From Phycisphaera mikurensis NBRC 102666 (GTDB lineage Bacteria > Planctomycetota > Phycisphaerae > Phycisphaerales > Phycisphaeraceae), in the NCBI RefSeq assembly GCF_000284115.1, contig NC_017080.1, positions 1,500,001 to 1,532,000 on the forward strand: 32,000 bases of DNA, in the 5' to 3' direction. A program made the position numbers and the translations under genes. Shown piece after piece: positions 825 through 30,739 of the stretch. Numbering within the stretch: the first letter of the stretch is position 1; every line of letters begins with the position of its first letter. The notes beneath the pieces were generated by a model. It made no database searches, had not been told where the DNA came from, and saw only the letters and a program-made list of their open reading frames with translations.

Positions 825-870
825 CCGCGGACCGGCGGGCGTTCCGGCGCTTGGGACCCGCGGTCCGCGG
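825..870. repeat. 46-bp palindromic element, copy E (CCGCGGACCG-N26-CGGTCCGCGG); possible bidirectional terminator
   Basis: Both 10-bp arms are exact (825-834, 861-870) with a 26-nt interior. It lies between convergent ORF 42..728 (+) and tRNA-Pro (-), 12 nt past the tRNA 3' end. The interior shares CGGGCGTTCCG with the 22117 copy. Confidence 0.8.
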
Positions 871-882
871 AACCGGGCATCA

Positions 883-956
883 TCGGGGCGGCCAGATTTG
901 AACTGACGACTTCCTGCTCCCAAAGCAGGCGCTCTACCAAGCTGAGCTACGCCCCG
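883..956 (-). tRNA. tRNA-Pro, anticodon UGG
   Basis: The reverse complement folds by hand into a 74-nt cloverleaf. Acceptor CGGGGCG/CGCCCCG, D stem GCTC/GAGC, anticodon stem CCTGC/GCAGG with loop TTTGGGA (anticodon TGG), T stem GTCAG/CTGGC with loop TTCAAAT, discriminator A. No encoded CCA. Confidence 0.95.
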
Positions 957-995
957 CGGGGTGCCGCAGCGTAGCTGCGGCCCGGCGTGGCGGGG

Positions 996-2075
996 TCATC
1001 CCGGTGCGGACGGGACCGCTTCCGCCAGGAACAGCGCGAGCAGGTCCCGGCACGCCTCCAGGTCCGCCTTGTGGCAGGCCTCGGTCACGGAGTGGATGTT
1101 GCGGGTGGGCACCGAGAGCGTGAAGGTGCGGGCACCGACGCCGGCGCGCTGGAGGCTGCCGGCATCGGTGCCGCCCCGCATCAGGATGCTGCGCTGGGTG
1201 GGCACGCCGTTCGCCTCGCCGAGCCGCTCGAACGCCTGGAGGATCCCCACGTCGGCGATGCTGGCGGAGTCCATCACGGTGAGGGCGACGCCCTTGCCGA
1301 AGGCGGTCGTCTGCTGGTGCGGGACGCCGCCGGGGGTGTCGACGCAGAGGGTGGTGTCCACGGCGATGCCGACGTGCGGCCGGGCGGTGTAGGCGCTGGT
1401 GAGGGCGCCACGCAGGCCGACCTCCTCCTGGACGGTGAACACGCAGTGCAGCTCGCAGGGGTGCGGCGTGGCGTCGGCCTCCAGCTTCCGGACGGCTTCC
1501 ACCAGCGCCCAGCAGGCGACGCGGTTGTCCATCGCCTGGCCCGCGACGGCGGGGCCCAGGTCCACGAAGGGCTGATCGAGGACGACCATGTCGCCGATTT
1601 TCACGCGCTTCTTGACCTCCTCCGCCGGGAGCGTGGTGTCGATCACCAGGTCGGTGAGGTCGGGCAGCTTCTTGCGGTCTTCCTCGGTCGCGAGGTGCAC
1701 CGGCTTCACGCCGGGGTTCATGAGACCGCGGAGGTCCCGTGACGGATCCGCGGGATCGGGGCAGATCGTCACGACCCGGGCGAAGAGGTTGCGGATGTCG
1801 AAGCCGCCCACCGGTTGCACGCGGAGGAAGCCGTCGTCGTCGATGAAGCGGACGAGGAAGCCGATCTGGTCCATGTGGGCGGCGACCATCACCCGCTGCG
1901 GCGGCTCCGCAGCCGGCCCCCGCGCCGAGCGCACGCACACAAGCGAGCCCAGCGGGTCCGTCGTGACCGTGTCGAAGAGGCCGGCCGCCTCCTCCTCCAG
2001 CAGCGCCCGCACGCGGTGCTCGCGGCCGGGCACGGCGGCGGTCTCGGAGAGTCGCTTCAACAGATCGAGGTTCAT
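996..2075 (-). CDS. M42-family metallo-aminopeptidase (FrvX/PepA-like)
   Basis: ORF track 996..2396 (-) trimmed to the internal ATG at 2075 (MNLDLLKRLSETAAVPGREHRV...). The upstream part of that ORF runs through the tandem repeat and is not protein-like. Motifs AAHMDQIGF, DNRVACW and QEEVGLRGA are typical of M42 peptidases. Confidence 0.88.
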   Translation of the reverse strand: MNLDLLKRLSETAAVPGREHRVRALLEEEAAGLFDTVTTDPLGSLVCVRSARGPAAEPPQRVMVAAHMDQIGFLVRFIDDDGFLRVQPVGGFDIRNLFARVVTICPDPADPSRDLRGLMNPGVKPVHLATEEDRKKLPDLTDLVIDTTLPAEEVKKRVKIGDMVVLDQPFVDLGPAVAGQAMDNRVACWALVEAVRKLEADATPHPCELHCVFTVQEEVGLRGALTSAYTARPHVGIAVDTTLCVDTPGGVPHQQTTAFGKGVALTVMDSASIADVGILQAFERLGEANGVPTQRSILMRGGTDAGSLQRAGVGARTFTLSVPTRNIHSVTEACHKADLEACRDLLALFLAEAVPSAPG

Positions 2076-2113
2076 AGGGCGGAAACCTACAGGCTCAAGC
2101 CCTCGACCCTCGA

Positions 2114-28363: not shown

Positions 28364-28390
28364 GCCTCCGGCTCGATCGGACCGACCTTC

Positions 28391-28422
28391 GGCGTCCCGC
28401 GGCCCACCGGCCGCGGGACGCC
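28391..28422 (+). terminator. Perfect GC-rich hairpin (14-bp stem, 4-nt loop) after the PC2 gene
   Basis: GGCGTCCCGCGGCC-cacc-GGCCGCGGGACGCC followed by TTCT. It starts 28 nt after stop 28363 and lies 65 nt before ATG 28487. Confidence 0.65.
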
Positions 28423-28486
28423 TTCTCCCGGAGGAGACCCCACCACAAAGCCGCCCCGAAGACGCCGACGCGTCGAAAGATCCCGC

Positions 28487-29299
28487 ATGAACGCCTCCTC
28501 CCCCCGCCGTTCCGGTTTCACCCTGATCGAGCTGCTGGTCGTGATCAGCATCATCGCCCTGCTCATCGGGATCCTGCTGCCGGCGCTGGGCGCGGCCCGT
28601 GCGAGCGCCCGCACCCTCTCTTGCCTCAGCAACATCCGACAGATGACGATCGCGACGCTCAACTACGCGACCGACAACAAAGACGAGCTGCCCACGACGT
28701 TCGTGACGGACAACAACAACGACGGCACGAACGACCTCTGGTTCGACAAGCACATGATCGGGTACTACCTCCCCGACAGCGGCGTCTCCAGCTCGGCCTC
28801 GATCGATGGCTTCGCGTTCATCTGCCCCTCCGACGAGGGGAGCGTTCGCACCTACTCCATGAACGCCCGCGCGGCCAGCGACGCCAAGGAAGTCGGCATC
28901 AACAACGAGCGGAACAGCTCCTTCGACCTCAACGCGGGCGCAGGCACGCAGCTGATCCTCTTCGGAGAGGGGTGGGGGCGGTTCGGCACCGAAGCGCAGC
29001 ACTTCTCCAACGCCACGATCGGCGCCGAGGCCGGAACCACCCCCGGCGGACGCTTCGGCGGCACAGCGACGACGTTCAACAACCTCGCCTTCTACGGAGC
29101 CGCGAACGCCGCTCAAGCCAACACCAACTACCTCCTCCACGGCGGTGACGACATCAACCGTGCCGACGGTGCGAGCAACTGGACCTTCCTGGACGGGCAC
29201 GGCGAGACGGCGCAGCAGGAGACGCTCTACGATGCGTCCACGGGGCTCTCGACGTACAAGTTTCTGTGGTCGGAAACCGACCGGCAGTCCGAGCCGTGA
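28487..29299 (+). CDS. Prepilin-type N-terminal cleavage/methylation-domain protein (DUF1559-like pseudopilin), copy 2
   Basis: The N-terminus [33 protein letters not shown] is nearly identical to copy 1 and includes a 29-nt identical DNA stretch. The C-terminus is [10 protein letters not shown]. The stop lies 6 nt before the binding-protein GTG. Confidence 0.9.
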
Positions 29300-29305
29300 G
29301 CTCGT

Positions 29306-30739
29306 GTGGTCGCTCGCTTCCTCCTGATCGCCGTGCTCGCGGGCTTGCCGCTGCTCAATGCGTGCGACCGCCGGAGCTCCGACGCGAAGCGCCTGGAGGT
29401 CTGGACCCTCGCCCTCTCCCCCTACTTCGACGACTACCTCACCGGCGTGTTCGGCGCCTTCGAGGCGGAGCATCCCGGCACCGAGGTCGTCTGGGTGGAC
29501 GTGCCCTTCGACGCGATCAACCGCAAGCTGGTCGCGGCCGCGGCGGCGGGGCGGGCGCCGGACGTGGTGAATCTCTCCGACCGTGATTTCGCTCGCGTGG
29601 CGGCGCTCGGCGGCCTGGCGGACCTCGACCCGTTGCTCGCGGACGGCGTGGTCGAGCGGTACCTGCCGGGCGCGGTCCGCGGGTTGCGGCTGAACGGCGG
29701 CCTGCGGGCGCTGCCGTGGTACCTGACGACGCAGGTGCGGATGGCCAACGCGGCGACGCTCGCCCGCGGCGGGCTCACGCCCGACACGCTCGCCAACGAC
29801 TGGACCGGGCTGCGCGACCAGGCGCGGGCCTACCACGAGGAAACCGGCGGCTTCCTCTTCTCGGTGCCGCTGGGCGAGACCTCCGAGCTGCCGATGATGC
29901 TGCTCAGCGAGGGCATCCGGCCGTTCCGCGAGACGCCGGATGGCTTGGTCGCCGACCTCACGCGTGAAGAAGTCGCCGGCTACGTCTCCGCCTGGGTCGA
30001 CCTCTACCGCGAGGGCGCCCTGCCCCGCGCCGCGGCCACCCGCGACCACACGCACCTGGTCGAGGGCTACCAGAAGGGCGAGATCGCGCTGATCCAAACC
30101 GGCAGCAACATGCTCGGCCGCATCCGCGACGCCGCGCCCGACGTGTACGGCGAAACCGTCGTGAAGCCCGGCGTCACCGGCCGCCTGCAGCGCTCGCACA
30201 TCGCCGCCATGGTGGTCGGCGTGAGCGGCAGAAGCGAACACCCCGAGGAGGCGGCCGCGCTCGCCGCCTTCCTCACGAGCCCCGCCAGCCAGACCGGCCT
30301 CTCCAAGCAAAGCGGCGTGCTGCCCTCGACGCCCGCCAGCCTCGACGACCCGTACTTCGCCTTCCCGGAGGGCGCGTCCGATGATCCGGAGGCCCGGCTC
30401 ACGGAGGCCCGCGCCACCAGCGCCGCCTCGCTGCGCACCGCCGTGGCGTTCACCCCCGCGATGGAGACCTGGCCCGAGCTGCGCCGCGCCTTCAACGAGG
30501 GCATCAAGCGCGCCCTGCTCGGCGGCGAGCCGACCGCCGGCGTCCTCGCCTCCATCGAGGCCGAGTGGAACCGCATCCTCGCCGCCGCCCGCCCCGTCGG
30601 CCCCGACGCCCTCCCGCCGGCGTCCCGGGTGCCACGCCCCTTGGGGGGTGGCGTTGGAAGTTCGGTGAGCGTCCCCACCCCCCAAGGGGCGTGGCACCCG
30701 GTTCCGGCCGCGGGCCTCGTCCTGCCGGAGGCCGCGTGA
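29306..30739 (+). CDS. ABC transporter extracellular solute-binding protein (family 1/CUT1-like), lipoprotein
   Basis: GTG 29306. Lipobox LPLLNAC. Motifs PDVVNLSD, YLPGAVRGLRLNGGLRALPWYL and GEIALIQTGSNM are typical of sugar-binding proteins. The last ~45 codons run through the 30625 inverted repeat and look non-native. Confidence 0.82.
   Translation: MVARFLLIAVLAGLPLLNACDRRSSDAKRLEVWTLALSPYFDDYLTGVFGAFEAEHPGTEVVWVDVPFDAINRKLVAAAAAGRAPDVVNLSDRDFARVAALGGLADLDPLLADGVVERYLPGAVRGLRLNGGLRALPWYLTTQVRMANAATLARGGLTPDTLANDWTGLRDQARAYHEETGGFLFSVPLGETSELPMMLLSEGIRPFRETPDGLVADLTREEVAGYVSAWVDLYREGALPRAAATRDHTHLVEGYQKGEIALIQTGSNMLGRIRDAAPDVYGETVVKPGVTGRLQRSHIAAMVVGVSGRSEHPEEAAALAAFLTSPASQTGLSKQSGVLPSTPASLDDPYFAFPEGASDDPEARLTEARATSAASLRTAVAFTPAMETWPELRRAFNEGIKRALLGGEPTAGVLASIEAEWNRILAAARPVGPDALPPASRVPRPLGGGVGSSVSVPTPQGAWHPVPAAGLVLPEAA
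29637..29682. repeat. 46-bp palindromic element, variant copy K, inside a CDS
   Basis: Left arm TCGCGGACGG (8/10 to consensus), right arm exact, interior 26 nt. Same codon phase as the other coding copies; it encodes LADGVVERYLPGAVRGL, which looks like a native binding-protein segment. Confidence 0.45.
30625..30701. repeat. Perfect 27-bp inverted repeat with a 23-nt loop (REP-like hairpin) at the binding-protein/permease junction
   Basis: The left arm CCGGGTGCCACGCCCCTTGGGGGGTGG (30625-30651) is the exact reverse complement of 30675-30701. I verified this base by base. It lies within the last 115 nt of the 29306 ORF. Confidence 0.92.

Follow-up and report, generated by a model that had tools for sequence, protein, structure and literature searches.

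Ten 46-nt units and their surroundings

We analysed a window of 32,000 nucleotides from Phycisphaera mikurensis that contains ten copies of a 46-nt unit, CCGCGGACCG-N26-CGGTCCGCGG, six with perfect arms, two with one mismatch and two with two mismatches. The coordinates and match qualities listed in a preliminary description were correct for all ten. Unit 825–870 (plus strand, perfect arms) is intergenic, between a plus-strand gene that stops at 728 and tRNA-Pro (883–956, minus strand), whose 3' end is 12 nt away; its RNA has a minimum free energy (MFE) of -32.7 kcal/mol and its interior polarity log-likelihood ratio is +6.9. Unit 8459–8504 (plus strand, perfect arms; MFE -34.4, z -6.9) begins 6 nt past the stop codon of a Glucosamine_iso/PIG-L gene, previously called nagB; a convergent heparinase-like gene has its stop 56 nt away. 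Unit 25333–25378 (plus strand, perfect arms) lies 97 nt past the stop of a gene for a GntR-type regulator and 10 nt before the ATG of a FAD-oxidoreductase gene. The distances of 12, 6 and 10 nt agree with those first reported. Of the two copies previously placed between cistrons, one is so placed: unit 15163–15208 (minus strand), a degenerate copy with one G>A change per arm, starts 10 nt past the stop codon of a DUF1559 gene and is separated by 53 nt from the next ATG. On the minus strand its mismatches become G.U wobble pairs, such that full pairing is kept (MFE -33.2, as compared with -23.9 on the plus strand). The other, unit 22117–22162 (plus strand, perfect arms), lies 29 nt past the upstream stop codon and most probably falls within the N-terminal part of a Beta-lactamase2-like gene (GTG at 22084).

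The 3' end of the Glucosamine_iso/PIG-L gene (window positions 8130–8452) has a degraded duplicate at 10724–11010 on the plus strand, in which alignment revealed a 39-nt deletion, a 1-nt frameshift and a TGA to TGG change. The homology ends within unit 11011–11056 (plus strand, perfect arms), which has arms identical to those of unit 8459 at 20/20 positions and an interior identical at 14/26. The duplication junction lies within this unit, showing that units act as substrates of repeat-mediated rearrangement. The location of unit 11011 at the end of a pseudogene fragment corrects the preliminary description. Lone half-sites are present at 7361–7370 (plus strand, in a gene but in another reading frame, as could arise by chance), 11110–11119 (minus strand, 54 nt downstream of unit 11011) and 21786–21795 (minus strand, in a gene, in the A-D-R reading frame).

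Exact matches to CGGTCCGCGG number 10 on the plus strand of the window and 18 on both strands, whereas dinucleotide shuffles gave 1.5 on average and 5 at most. With up to three mismatches allowed, the full 46-bp pattern occurs ten times against 0.15 expected from the same type of shuffle, reproducing the ten 10-mer matches and ten units first reported. All ten units in the window have N26, with one or two noise matches at other spacings, and the peak at 26 held throughout the sequence examined (45.6 kb of P. mikurensis, plus related and metagenome loci). A seeming peak at N19 comes from N26 units that match themselves with a 7-nt shift. In unrelated high-GC control genomes, 121 chance matches had a flat spacing distribution, with three at N26. 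Codon-aware shuffling did not reproduce the 10-mer excess within the sequence examined: a codon-permutation null predicted 0.14 in-gene units against four observed, protein-preserving synonymous shuffling kept 1.75, and a perfect in-gene unit is expected about 7e-6 times per window, as computed from half-site frequencies. Arm variation is all-or-none; 65 copies are perfect, and the few variants, nearly all of them in genes, have the same C9>G change in common. All 11 P. mikurensis units that we observed fall in a single stretch of 32 kb, and 12.8 kb of sequence flanking it contains none. Their spacing in the window is more even than random (CV 0.43, P = 0.003), an evenness not reproduced in the related locus L183. 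We found no description of this family in the searchable literature or in Rfam; the preliminary description likewise did not recognise it as a described REP or MITE family. We conclude that the 46-nt hairpin repeat family of P. mikurensis and its relatives is real and previously undescribed.

Conservation, folding and position of the units

We observed units at orthologous positions in two related lineages, making three lineages altogether. In these orthologous units the arms are identical at 20/20 positions and the spacing of 26 is unchanged, while the interior is only ~54% identical (about 46% diverged) and the upstream flanking intergenic DNA is unalignable, indicating purifying selection on the arms and the length. 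Unit 25333 is kept at the orthologous site in L123, L124 and L183, and in three lineages the ATG of the FAD-oxidoreductase gene is preceded by a unit at a distance of 9–22 nt; the ortholog of unit 22117 (L183:4555) has an interior identical at 20/26 positions. There are no units in about 121 kb from syntenic outgroups and other relatives, and the distribution among lineages is patchy. One marine metagenome contains more than 30 perfect copies adjoining diverse housekeeping genes, among them genes for ribosomal proteins L20 and S11, PntB, an ATP-synthase subunit, Fur, GspG and a PBP, indicating that the unit is not a local operator. The unit-bearing metagenome contigs encode no homologs of window proteins other than a weak match for the GntR-type regulator.

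Every unit folds as a hairpin. Position pair 11/36 covaries (UA 15, CG 10, UG 9) beyond a simple Y/R preference; it is the sole covarying extra base pair, there is no conserved inner stem, and the interior contributes a mean z of only -0.67 to folding, such that the proposed conservation of foldability is weak. The preliminary description had also proposed that arms and length are conserved and the interior is not. The first part held. By contrast, the interiors of non-genic copies share a weak oriented consensus, Y-C-G-S-C-G-G-T-T-T-C..., with 9.4 bits as compared with 4.5 +/- 0.2 in shuffles. Each arm has a weak outward extension of its consensus, independent of the other arm, and there is a weak A-T preference adjoining an arm. 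The polarity of the interior does not follow the strand of the neighbouring gene (5 sense, 6 antisense). No unit is followed by a U-tract, so the units are not canonical intrinsic terminators; a role in RNA is putative.

Copies are enriched at gene boundaries within the sequence examined. Thirty unit sides face a gene 3' end at a distance of up to 150 nt, and 12 of these are no more than 10 nt from the stop codon; non-genic copies start within 10 nt past a stop codon far above expectation. The intergenic copies do occupy gene 3' ends and operon junctions, as first described, but a terminator or attenuator reading does not cover the 4–5 of ten copies that are in genes. The junction between the solute-binding-protein (SBP) gene and the permease gene differs among lineages, holding either a 77-bp palindrome, or a unit alone, or a unit together with GTAG REPs; non-genic units and GTAG-type REPs use a common insertion hot-spot. 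We found no target-site duplication at the units, no GTAG or CGTC tag in them, and no RAYT or other transposase in 45.6 kb of P. mikurensis; within this, the window encodes no transposase domain, as previously noted.

Copies within genes

Four units lie inside genes, and the probable location of unit 22117 brings the count to 4–5 of ten; that these copies lie in genes and are colinear with distant homologs was missed in the preliminary description. Unit 3369–3414 (minus strand, one mismatch, C9>G) is within a long high-GC3 ORF (2135–4648) that has no Pfam match; it is read in the frame A-D-G...V-R-G, and its interior is strongly family-like (100th percentile of the coding background). Unit 17363–17408 (minus strand, perfect arms), in a SIS/GKRP-like gene (16846–18495, minus strand), corresponds to residues about 363–378, peptide PADRGWFPLLGRPVRG, and is colinear with homologs at 38–50% identity; its interior is at the 96.7th percentile of the coding background. 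Unit 25816–25861 (one mismatch; peptide SADGAANRVRSVTVRG), in the FAD-oxidoreductase gene, shows no indel relative to 11 homologs, and relatives have perfect arms at the same site. Unit 29637–29682 (minus strand, two mismatches; peptide LADGVVERYLPGAVRG) is in a solute-binding-protein gene, with the same two mismatches in L123, L124 and L183. For unit 22117, the left arm falls on an invariant L-P-R, while the right arm plus AT constitutes a 4-codon indel relative to outgroups.

The colinearity of in-gene copies with distant homologs indicates that they are not insertions of whole units. Three add no residues and one adds at most four. Fourteen of 15 in-gene copies are in one reading frame, with departures from the consensus only where the protein demands them. 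Arm codons are identical between lineages at 14/14 positions, as compared with 73–77% gene-wide and 7/11 in the interiors (p = 0.026). From these alignments it appears that some copies arose within genes on ancestral codons, not by insertion.

Interpretation and comparison with known systems

The reading that we favour, with about even confidence, is that the units are a REP-like family of hairpins recognised by a sequence-specific factor, with a putative function at the 3' ends of transcripts. REP/REPIN elements and their RAYTs are described from Enterobacteria, Pseudomonas and Stenotrophomonas, in GTAG- and CGTC-tagged superfamilies (PMC3733652). Like them, the 46-nt units are short, G+C-rich, palindromic, dispersed and lineage-specific; they lie mostly downstream of ORFs, in gaps between convergent or same-direction genes and often a few nt from the stop codon; and they lack target-site duplications, persist vertically and are prone to rearrangement. 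A further link is the hot-spot shared with genuine GTAG REPs in relatives. On the other side, the units lack the GTAG/CGTC tag, are mostly single rather than doublets, and have an invariant 10–11-bp stem around a poorly conserved 24–26-nt interior, whereas a REP is a near-complete palindrome with a small loop. There is no RAYT within the 45.6 kb of P. mikurensis, and the location of all its observed units in one 32-kb stretch also counts against this reading. Unlike REPs, in-gene copies are colinear with homologs and not inserted, which copy-and-paste does not explain. Also against a REP-like family, the 'loop' is always 24 nt long and lacks a conserved inner stem; a fixed spacer of free sequence is what would be expected of a DNA-binding protein with two half-sites.

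That expectation leads to the main alternative, a possible though distinctly less probable one, in which the unit is a signal in duplex DNA: two inverted 11–13 bp half-sites with constant separation, recognised by a multimeric protein such as a nucleoid, topology or segregation factor or a DNA-uptake or packaging receptor, and kept everywhere, genes included, by weak selection or molecular drive, as are DUS/USS, Chi and HIP1. Strictly fixed spacing with a largely free interior, unit positions kept across species, the even spacing in the window and the independent outward extension of each arm all favour such a signal, as do the in-gene copies, given their origin on ancestral codons, their frame and protein-limited departures from the consensus, and their invariant arm codons. 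However, lone half-sites are at chance level (three against one or two expected), the even spacing is absent from L183, and a distance of 36 bp between half-site centres, about 3.4 helical turns, puts the half-sites on opposite faces of the helix. The 11/36 covariation exceeds a Y/R preference, copies are strongly enriched just past stop codons, and the interior consensus and hot-spot use of non-genic copies indicate copy-and-paste descent.

The Neisseria DUS and Pasteurellaceae USS are specific 10–12-mers common to related species, found in genes in a preferred frame, arising by substitution, and present as inverted pairs downstream of genes. The arms of the 46-nt family likewise are a specific 10–12-mer common to related species, with an in-gene frame preference, an origin in genes by substitution and inverted pairing downstream of genes, but what is over-represented is the inverted pair at exactly N26 and not the single half-site, and non-genic copies share interior sequence. 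HIP1 of cyanobacteria, a single 8-bp palindrome, also occurs inside and outside genes and is kept at orthologous positions beyond neutral expectation; the 20-nt motif of the 46-nt family is instead bipartite, has a spacer of fixed length and is concentrated at gene ends. Rickettsia palindromic elements and intragenic REPs (the latter in PMC3733652) are in-frame insertions that add residues; our units are similarly translatable within functional proteins, but three in-gene copies add none and one at most four. Like integron attC sites, the units form hairpins, conserved at the ends and variable in the centre, that start right past a stop codon. Unlike these sites, which vary in length, they are constant in length and sit in conserved housekeeping operons, with no R''/R' core (RYYYAAC/GTTRRRY), cassette array or nearby integrase.

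A miniature inverted-repeat transposable element (MITE) of 46 bp that has terminal inverted repeats of 10 bp, is moved by a transposase encoded elsewhere and has no host function would account for the inverted repeats, the related interiors of different copies, the independent insertions at one junction and the patchy distribution. We consider it improbable: there is no target-site duplication and, within 45.6 kb, no transposase, in-gene copies are not insertions, and arms that stay at 20/20 while the interior falls to 54% identity are not in neutral decay. Still less probable is an RNA operator of an amino-sugar/cell-wall recycling super-locus, a hairpin of antiterminator or attenuator type that a protein specific to the locus would bind. 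All units seen in P. mikurensis, L123 and L183 fall in this conserved super-locus, with none in the 12.8 kb flanks, and the position upstream of the FAD-oxidoreductase ATG recurs. However, metagenome copies adjoin the diverse housekeeping genes listed above, on contigs that lack window-protein homologs save the weak GntR-type match, many copies lie between convergent genes or in genes, and the syntenic loci of outgroups function without units. An artefact of chance or codon usage in a 74% G+C genome, suggested by arms made of common codons (GCG GAC / GTC CGC GG) and by the 1.75 in-gene matches kept on synonymous shuffling, is refuted by the shuffle nulls (0.15 and 0.14 expected, 10 and 4 observed), the 7e-6 expectation, the six perfect-armed copies in the window, and recurrence in other lineages and the metagenome.

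Under the REP-like reading, the unit is an invariant G+C-rich 10-bp stem with a covarying eleventh pair, closing a 24–26-nt interior of fixed length and weak consensus. Arm sequence and 26-nt spacing are under purifying selection across species while interior and flanks drift; non-genic copies share the ancestry seen in their oriented interior consensus, and intergenic hot-spots received them in independent insertions that left no target-site duplication. Conservation specific to sequence and geometry suggests a dedicated protein that binds the folded hairpin, as ssDNA or RNA. RAYTs are tyrosine transposases associated with REPs; by analogy with these and other hairpin-binding HUH enzymes, the likeliest recogniser would be an enzyme that spreads or maintains the family. 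In genes, 'pre-sites' on ancestral codons, such as L-P-R or x-V-R-G, may have been starting points from which copies were built up by substitution, with the probable addition of 12 nt in one case, driven by selection on nucleotide sequence or by short templated conversion from other copies. Where transcribed, the units (-24 to -34 kcal/mol) would be hairpins active in either orientation; where genes end and at the junctions of operons, they may form, protect or attenuate the 3' ends of transcripts.

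Copy number, spacing and architecture of the unit

Rescanning of the window returned the same ten units, at the same coordinates, as the preliminary description. The arms are perfect 10-bp inverted repeats, and the pattern CCGCGGACCG-N26-CGGTCCGCGG has 10 matches with up to three mismatches, against 0.15 expected; for CGGTCCGCGG itself, the + strand alone holds 10 matches and the two strands together hold 18, where 1.5 would be expected. The spacing histogram of the window peaks at N26 (10 matches), with 1–2 noise matches at other spacings, and a secondary signal at N19 was rejected as a 7-nt-shifted self-match within the same units. 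As a spacing control, we took chance matches to a loose pattern (spacer N{14,40}) from 120 unrelated high-GC genomes, these being single matches in Actinomycetota; their distribution was flat, with 3 of 121 at N26 among the matches listed. The excess also withstood codon-aware shuffling: codon permutation gave an expectation of 0.14 in-gene units against the four observed, protein-preserving synonymous shuffling retained 1.75, and the half-site frequency under codon permutation puts the expectation for a perfect in-gene unit at ~7e-6 per window. Outside the units, the window holds only three half-sites (lone arms), where 1–2 are expected. A chance origin of the pattern is disfavored. A restriction-site explanation was rejected, as neither SacII-type CCGCGG nor RsrII-type CGGWCCG is avoided and CCGCGG is instead enriched; codon permutation predicts 80 ± 8.5 CCGCGG sites in window coding DNA, where there are 129 (121 of them outside units), and CGGWCCG occurs at expectation.

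In each of the ten window units, the 10-bp stem anchors a hairpin fold (-24 to -34 kcal/mol). Among 65 distinct perfect copies, pair 11/36 is the only extension of the stem that covaries (TA, CG, TG), positions 12–23 pair no better than with shuffled partners, and the RNAalifold consensus is an 11-bp stem with 24 unpaired positions. We therefore rejected a symmetric extended hairpin, for which pair 11/36 is the sole support. Arms, length and foldability, rather than interior sequence, had been proposed to be conserved. Arms and length are, whereas foldability of the interior is weak, since shuffling the interior with the arms kept revealed a small extra folding contribution (mean z -0.67), and the interior is not free to vary. 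When oriented, non-genic interiors share the consensus Y-C-G-S-C-G-G-T-T-T-C-G-G-C...G-C-C-R, which holds 9.4 bits against 4.5 ± 0.2 in shuffled controls taken through the same procedure, ~5 bits above background. This consensus indicates that the copies share descent or constraint and that the unit has a polarity; polarity is unrelated to the strand of the adjacent gene (5 sense versus 6 antisense among confident calls).

Preferences immediately outside the arms are weak, with A at -2 and AT on 22% of arm sides versus 3% of background, and they occur on either side irrespective of polarity. We found no one-sided tag of the GTAG/CGTC type, the flank logos giving a weak G-R-A-K / AT preference on either side. 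Target-site duplications are likewise absent: a flanking direct repeat of at least 2 nt accompanies 15.5% of units versus 13.0% of random windows. The suggestion that intergenic copies sit as terminators did not hold in its canonical form, as the hairpin is present but a T-run follows no copy on either strand. Variation in the arms is all-or-none: 65 copies are perfect, nine have 1–3 mismatches, and beyond these there is only noise. Seven of the nine imperfect copies are in genes and share the same C9>G change (Asp-Arg to Asp-Gly), and the arms vary so little that no compensatory double change is informative. The sole degenerate intergenic unit, 15163–15208, has two G>A changes. On the minus strand alone, both pair as G.U, so that this strand, antisense to both flanking genes, keeps full pairing and folds at -33.2 kcal/mol versus -23.9 for the plus strand.

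Gene context and orthologous copies

The window corresponds to contig JACHEL010000003.1 of P. mikurensis assembly GCA_014207395.1, and a 100%-identical protein is assigned to this species. Its gene map is consistent between GC3 frame analysis (G+C at third codon positions in sliding windows), Pfam and the deposited gene calls. On this map it is a conserved super-locus for amino-sugar and cell-wall recycling, with genes for a Glucosamine_iso/PIG-L protein, GHL10 proteins, a SIS/GKRP-like protein, NAGPA, a Beta-lactamase2-like protein, a GntR-type regulator, an FAD oxidoreductase, DUF1559 pilin-like proteins and an ABC transporter. Units 825, 8459, 15163 and 25333 (named by start coordinate) are intergenic, and units 3369, 17363, 25816 and 29637 lie inside genes. 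Unit 22117 is 29 nt past a stop codon, yet the N-terminal part of the next gene most likely includes it, giving an intragenic share of 4–5 out of ten. Unit 11011 closes a decayed second copy of the final ~330 nt of the Glucosamine_iso/PIG-L gene. The window contains no transposase domain, as reported before, and we found no RAYT (Y1/HUH transposase) in 45.6 kb of P. mikurensis, comprising the window and its extensions to the right (L121) and left (L185). This region carries 11 units, and at the eleventh (window-equivalent position 32659) a convergently oriented GH25 gene has its stop codon 5 nt away; there is neither unit nor half-site in the 8.5 kb left of the window or in the last 4.4 kb of the extended region. 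The eleven units (825–32704) are more evenly spaced than random (intervals 0.5–5.1 kb, CV 0.43, P = 0.003), a regularity that is not reproduced in L183, a syntenic contig from a related lineage, and that may reflect gene structure. In-gene copies fill what would be the three largest gaps, a placement that alone is not significant (rough estimate p ~0.19). Separately, a tandem duplication of ~147 nt (2096–2239 and 2243–2387, copies 90–94% identical) sits between the start of an M42 peptidase gene (2075) and the next gene, and a long ORF, 996–2396, runs through it to give a spurious repeated peptide.

Contigs from two related lineages, L123/L124 and L183, are syntenic with the window (FAD-oxidoreductase identity 79–84%, GC 0.70–0.71) and carry units at orthologous places. 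These lie upstream of the FAD-oxidoreductase ATG; inside the FAD-oxidoreductase gene, where the arms are perfect in the relatives; inside the gene for the solute-binding protein (SBP), with two mismatches that the window copy shares; and, next to the same GFO_IDH_MocA gene, 29 nt past its stop codon. The 20.8 kb of L183 contain 9 units; at the edge of this locus (L183:20350–20834) is a DnaB helicase gene with homing-endonuclease (intein-type) domains. In the spacer between the regulator and FAD-oxidoreductase genes, the flanks are unalignable between lineages and the interior is ~54% identical, while the arms match at 20/20 positions and the spacing is 26. No unit with at most one mismatch occurs at any other spacing in the P. 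mikurensis, L123/L124 and L183 loci. With an interior diverged that far, neutral evolution should have left substitutions and indels in the arms, which argues that arms and length are under purifying selection.

Searches with a DUF1559 protein and one metagenome protein returned no P. mikurensis paralog or ortholog and found the relatives L181–L184. Six more distant loci, ~121 kb in all, contain neither the unit nor any recurrent hairpin family (L178, L179, L180 and L184, of which three share synteny with the window, as well as L181 and L182), indicating that the family is restricted to particular lineages. Classical GTAG-tagged REP (repetitive extragenic palindrome) hairpins are present in the close relatives, at L183:12281–12403, an inverted doublet GTAGGGCAGGTCTTCGACCTGCC ... 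GGCAGGTCGAAGACCTGCCCTAC, and at L124:6818–6841. Their presence implies a RAYT-type system in those genomes; we found no GTAG-tagged REP in the P. mikurensis sequence examined.

Gene boundaries had been singled out as the preferred position, and the enrichment is borne out: a gene 3' end lies within 150 nt of 30 unit sides, and at 12 of these the stop codon is at most 10 nt away, where ~2 would be expected under uniform placement. The SBP ORF has a conserved C-terminal motif ...DALPP, followed by a variable stretch and then by conserved CCGGAGGCCGCGTGA, which overlaps the permease start. The junction between the SBP and permease genes holds a unique 77-bp perfect palindrome in P. mikurensis, a unit in L123, a unit plus a classical GTAG REP doublet in L183, and GTAG REPs in L124. 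We interpret it as an insertion hot-spot for hairpin elements, at which units behave like REPs. The SBP C-terminal tails are translated palindromes, and the annotated C-termini are therefore probably artefacts. The 77-bp palindrome itself (30625–30701; 27-nt arms, 23-nt loop, RNA MFE -74.5 kcal/mol, z -9) falls within the annotated SBP ORF, in its 3' tail, and has no second copy in any sequence examined.

A unit also marks a rearrangement. The pseudogene fragment 10724–11010 is ~92% identical to its Glucosamine_iso/PIG-L source up to unit 11011; it carries a deletion of 39 nt, a frameshift of 1 nt and TGG in place of TGA. Within the unit, duplicate and source agree at 20/20 arm positions and 14/26 interior positions, and beyond it nothing aligns. 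Homology thus breaks off within the unit, placing the rearrangement junction inside it, as in REP-mediated recombination.

Units inside conserved genes

Alignment with homologs indicates that the in-gene units are not whole-unit insertions. Unit 25816 falls in the segment HEPVxAD...SVTVRG of the FAD oxidoreductase, which has no gap relative to 11 homologs. Unit 17363 has perfect arms, and its segment aligns without indel to homologs at 38–50% identity. Both W368 and W381 are invariant there, and the consensus includes GRPPRG, the ancestral peptide on which the right arm lies; the left arm (A-D-R) is lineage-specific. The L183 fragment of this SIS-domain gene covers its N-terminal part, outside the region of the unit. 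At a second site in the SBP gene, L123 and L183 have a unit that is absent from P. mikurensis, and the difference consists of substitutions only. The left arm of unit 22117 lies on an invariant L-P-R, for which outgroup codons are CTG CCC CGG ATC, and its clade has exactly four extra codons, CGG TCC GCG GAT, equal to the right arm plus AT, on an unrooted tree. At 22084–22162, the apparent start of this Beta-lactamase2-like gene is a GTG sharing bases with the upstream TGA (GTGA), and from that start unit 22117 would be translated in the rarer frame P-R-T...R-S-A.

The frame xCC GCG GAC...GTC CGC GGx is used in 14 of 15 in-gene copies. Arm codons are identical between lineages in 14/14 cases, versus 73–77% of codons gene-wide and 7/11 interior codons (Fisher p = 0.026). 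The interiors of units 3369 and 17363 resemble the family (100th and 96.7th percentile of the coding background), and those of the units in the FAD-oxidoreductase and SBP genes have no clear resemblance to the family consensus. On this evidence, in-gene copies look like mosaics of ancestral codons and family sequence. Either selection or short templated conversion may have produced them.

Nature and significance of the family

Scanning metagenomes for perfect units yielded 53 loci, ~32 of them separate short contigs of one marine assembly; viral contigs gave 0 matches. Save for one weak match of the GntR-type regulator to L144, these metagenome contigs have no gene content in common with the window. 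The units adjoin genes for ribosomal proteins L20 and S11, PntB, an ATP-synthase subunit, Fur, PBP, GspG, a radical-SAM enzyme and a MamK-like actin (best named matches Planctomycetota). Such unrelated housekeeping neighbors indicate that the family as a whole is genome-wide rather than an operator of the window locus, which for P. mikurensis itself is an extrapolation.

A REP-like hairpin family is the best-supported reading, to which we give roughly an even chance. Its units have dispersed with shared descent, inserted at gene ends without target duplication, persisted vertically over long periods and taken part in rearrangements. Like REPs and REPINs, the unit is a short palindrome dispersed in many copies, mostly extragenic, downstream of ORFs and between convergent or same-direction genes, although 4–5 of the ten window units are intragenic. 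Unlike them, it has no unpaired GTAG or CGTC end tag. Whereas a REP is a near full-length palindrome with a small loop and is conserved as a whole, the unit has an 11-bp stem and 24 unpaired positions; and whereas inverted doublets are the main form of REPINs, units are single in the window, L123 and L183, with two units ~90–480 nt apart only in L141, L146 and L161. A broad REP survey defines GTAG and CGTC superfamilies and notes Planctomycetes REPs and intragenic REP insertions; Phycisphaera goes unmentioned (PMC3733652). The literature found describes no palindromic repeat from P. mikurensis and has the arm 10-mer only in unrelated primers; Rfam has no family match at E <= 1. As judged by its sequence features, the family appears to work like a REP, but its lack of a tag, its architecture and its mostly single units set it apart from established members. 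The position and stability of the hairpins suggest a role at transcript 3' ends, and the invariance of stem sequence and spacer length would require a sequence-specific reader.

The main rival, which we consider unlikely, is a duplex-DNA signal of two half-sites at a fixed distance, kept by selection or drive. It accounts better for the fixed spacer, the in-gene copies and their preferred frame, and worse for the shared interior, the insertions at the hot-spot, the near-chance number of lone half-sites and the concentration of units at stop codons. DUS/USS sequences offer a parallel in that copies inside genes come about through substitutions and favor one reading frame; in those systems, however, a single motif is strongly over-represented on both strands, and lone half-sites are near chance here.

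Also unlikely, in our view, is that the unit exceeds a REP-like parasite or transcript hairpin and is a genome-wide signal, read and actively written by dedicated machinery. Arms would be installed at permissive pre-sites, coding ones included, by short templated conversion or a molecular drive such as uptake or packaging bias, or annealing of abundant single-stranded element copies. Such writing would explain the perfect arms in conserved protein segments and the 12-nt 'right arm + AT' indel of the Beta-lactamase2-like gene, as well as the all-or-none arm variation and the fixed 26-nt geometry.

A classical MITE is disfavored: the terminal inverted repeats fit, but there is no target-site duplication, and old copies of a MITE, unconstrained by the host, decay uniformly, unlike orthologous units with arms at 20/20, interiors at 54% and unalignable flanks. 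Integron attC sites differ from the unit, which has a constant 46 nt, no R''/R' core and no integrase, and lies in conserved operons. For the family as a whole, a local operator was rejected, since metagenome units flank unrelated housekeeping genes and many of the window units follow a stop codon or are intragenic, beyond one set of control regions.

The family is a compact, easily searched case in which three processes can be separated on one sequence: copy-and-paste descent (shared interior, insertion hot-spots), host-level purifying selection (arms and spacing frozen, interior drifting), and the creation of copies on ancestral codons inside conserved proteins. The last would most surprise a specialist, in that perfect arms are constructed on ancestral codons in conserved protein segments. 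Units also mislead gene callers, whose ORFs read through them, as in the C-terminal tails of the SBP ORF and the start of the gene at 22084. Should there be a cognate protein, a 10-bp invariant stem with a 26-nt interior would be a new recognition architecture for hairpin- or inverted-repeat-binding factors. To our knowledge, Planctomycetota have almost no characterized repeat biology, and canonical terminators are scarce among them; if the hairpins mark transcript ends, they would provide a first handle on transcript 3'-end formation in this phylum.
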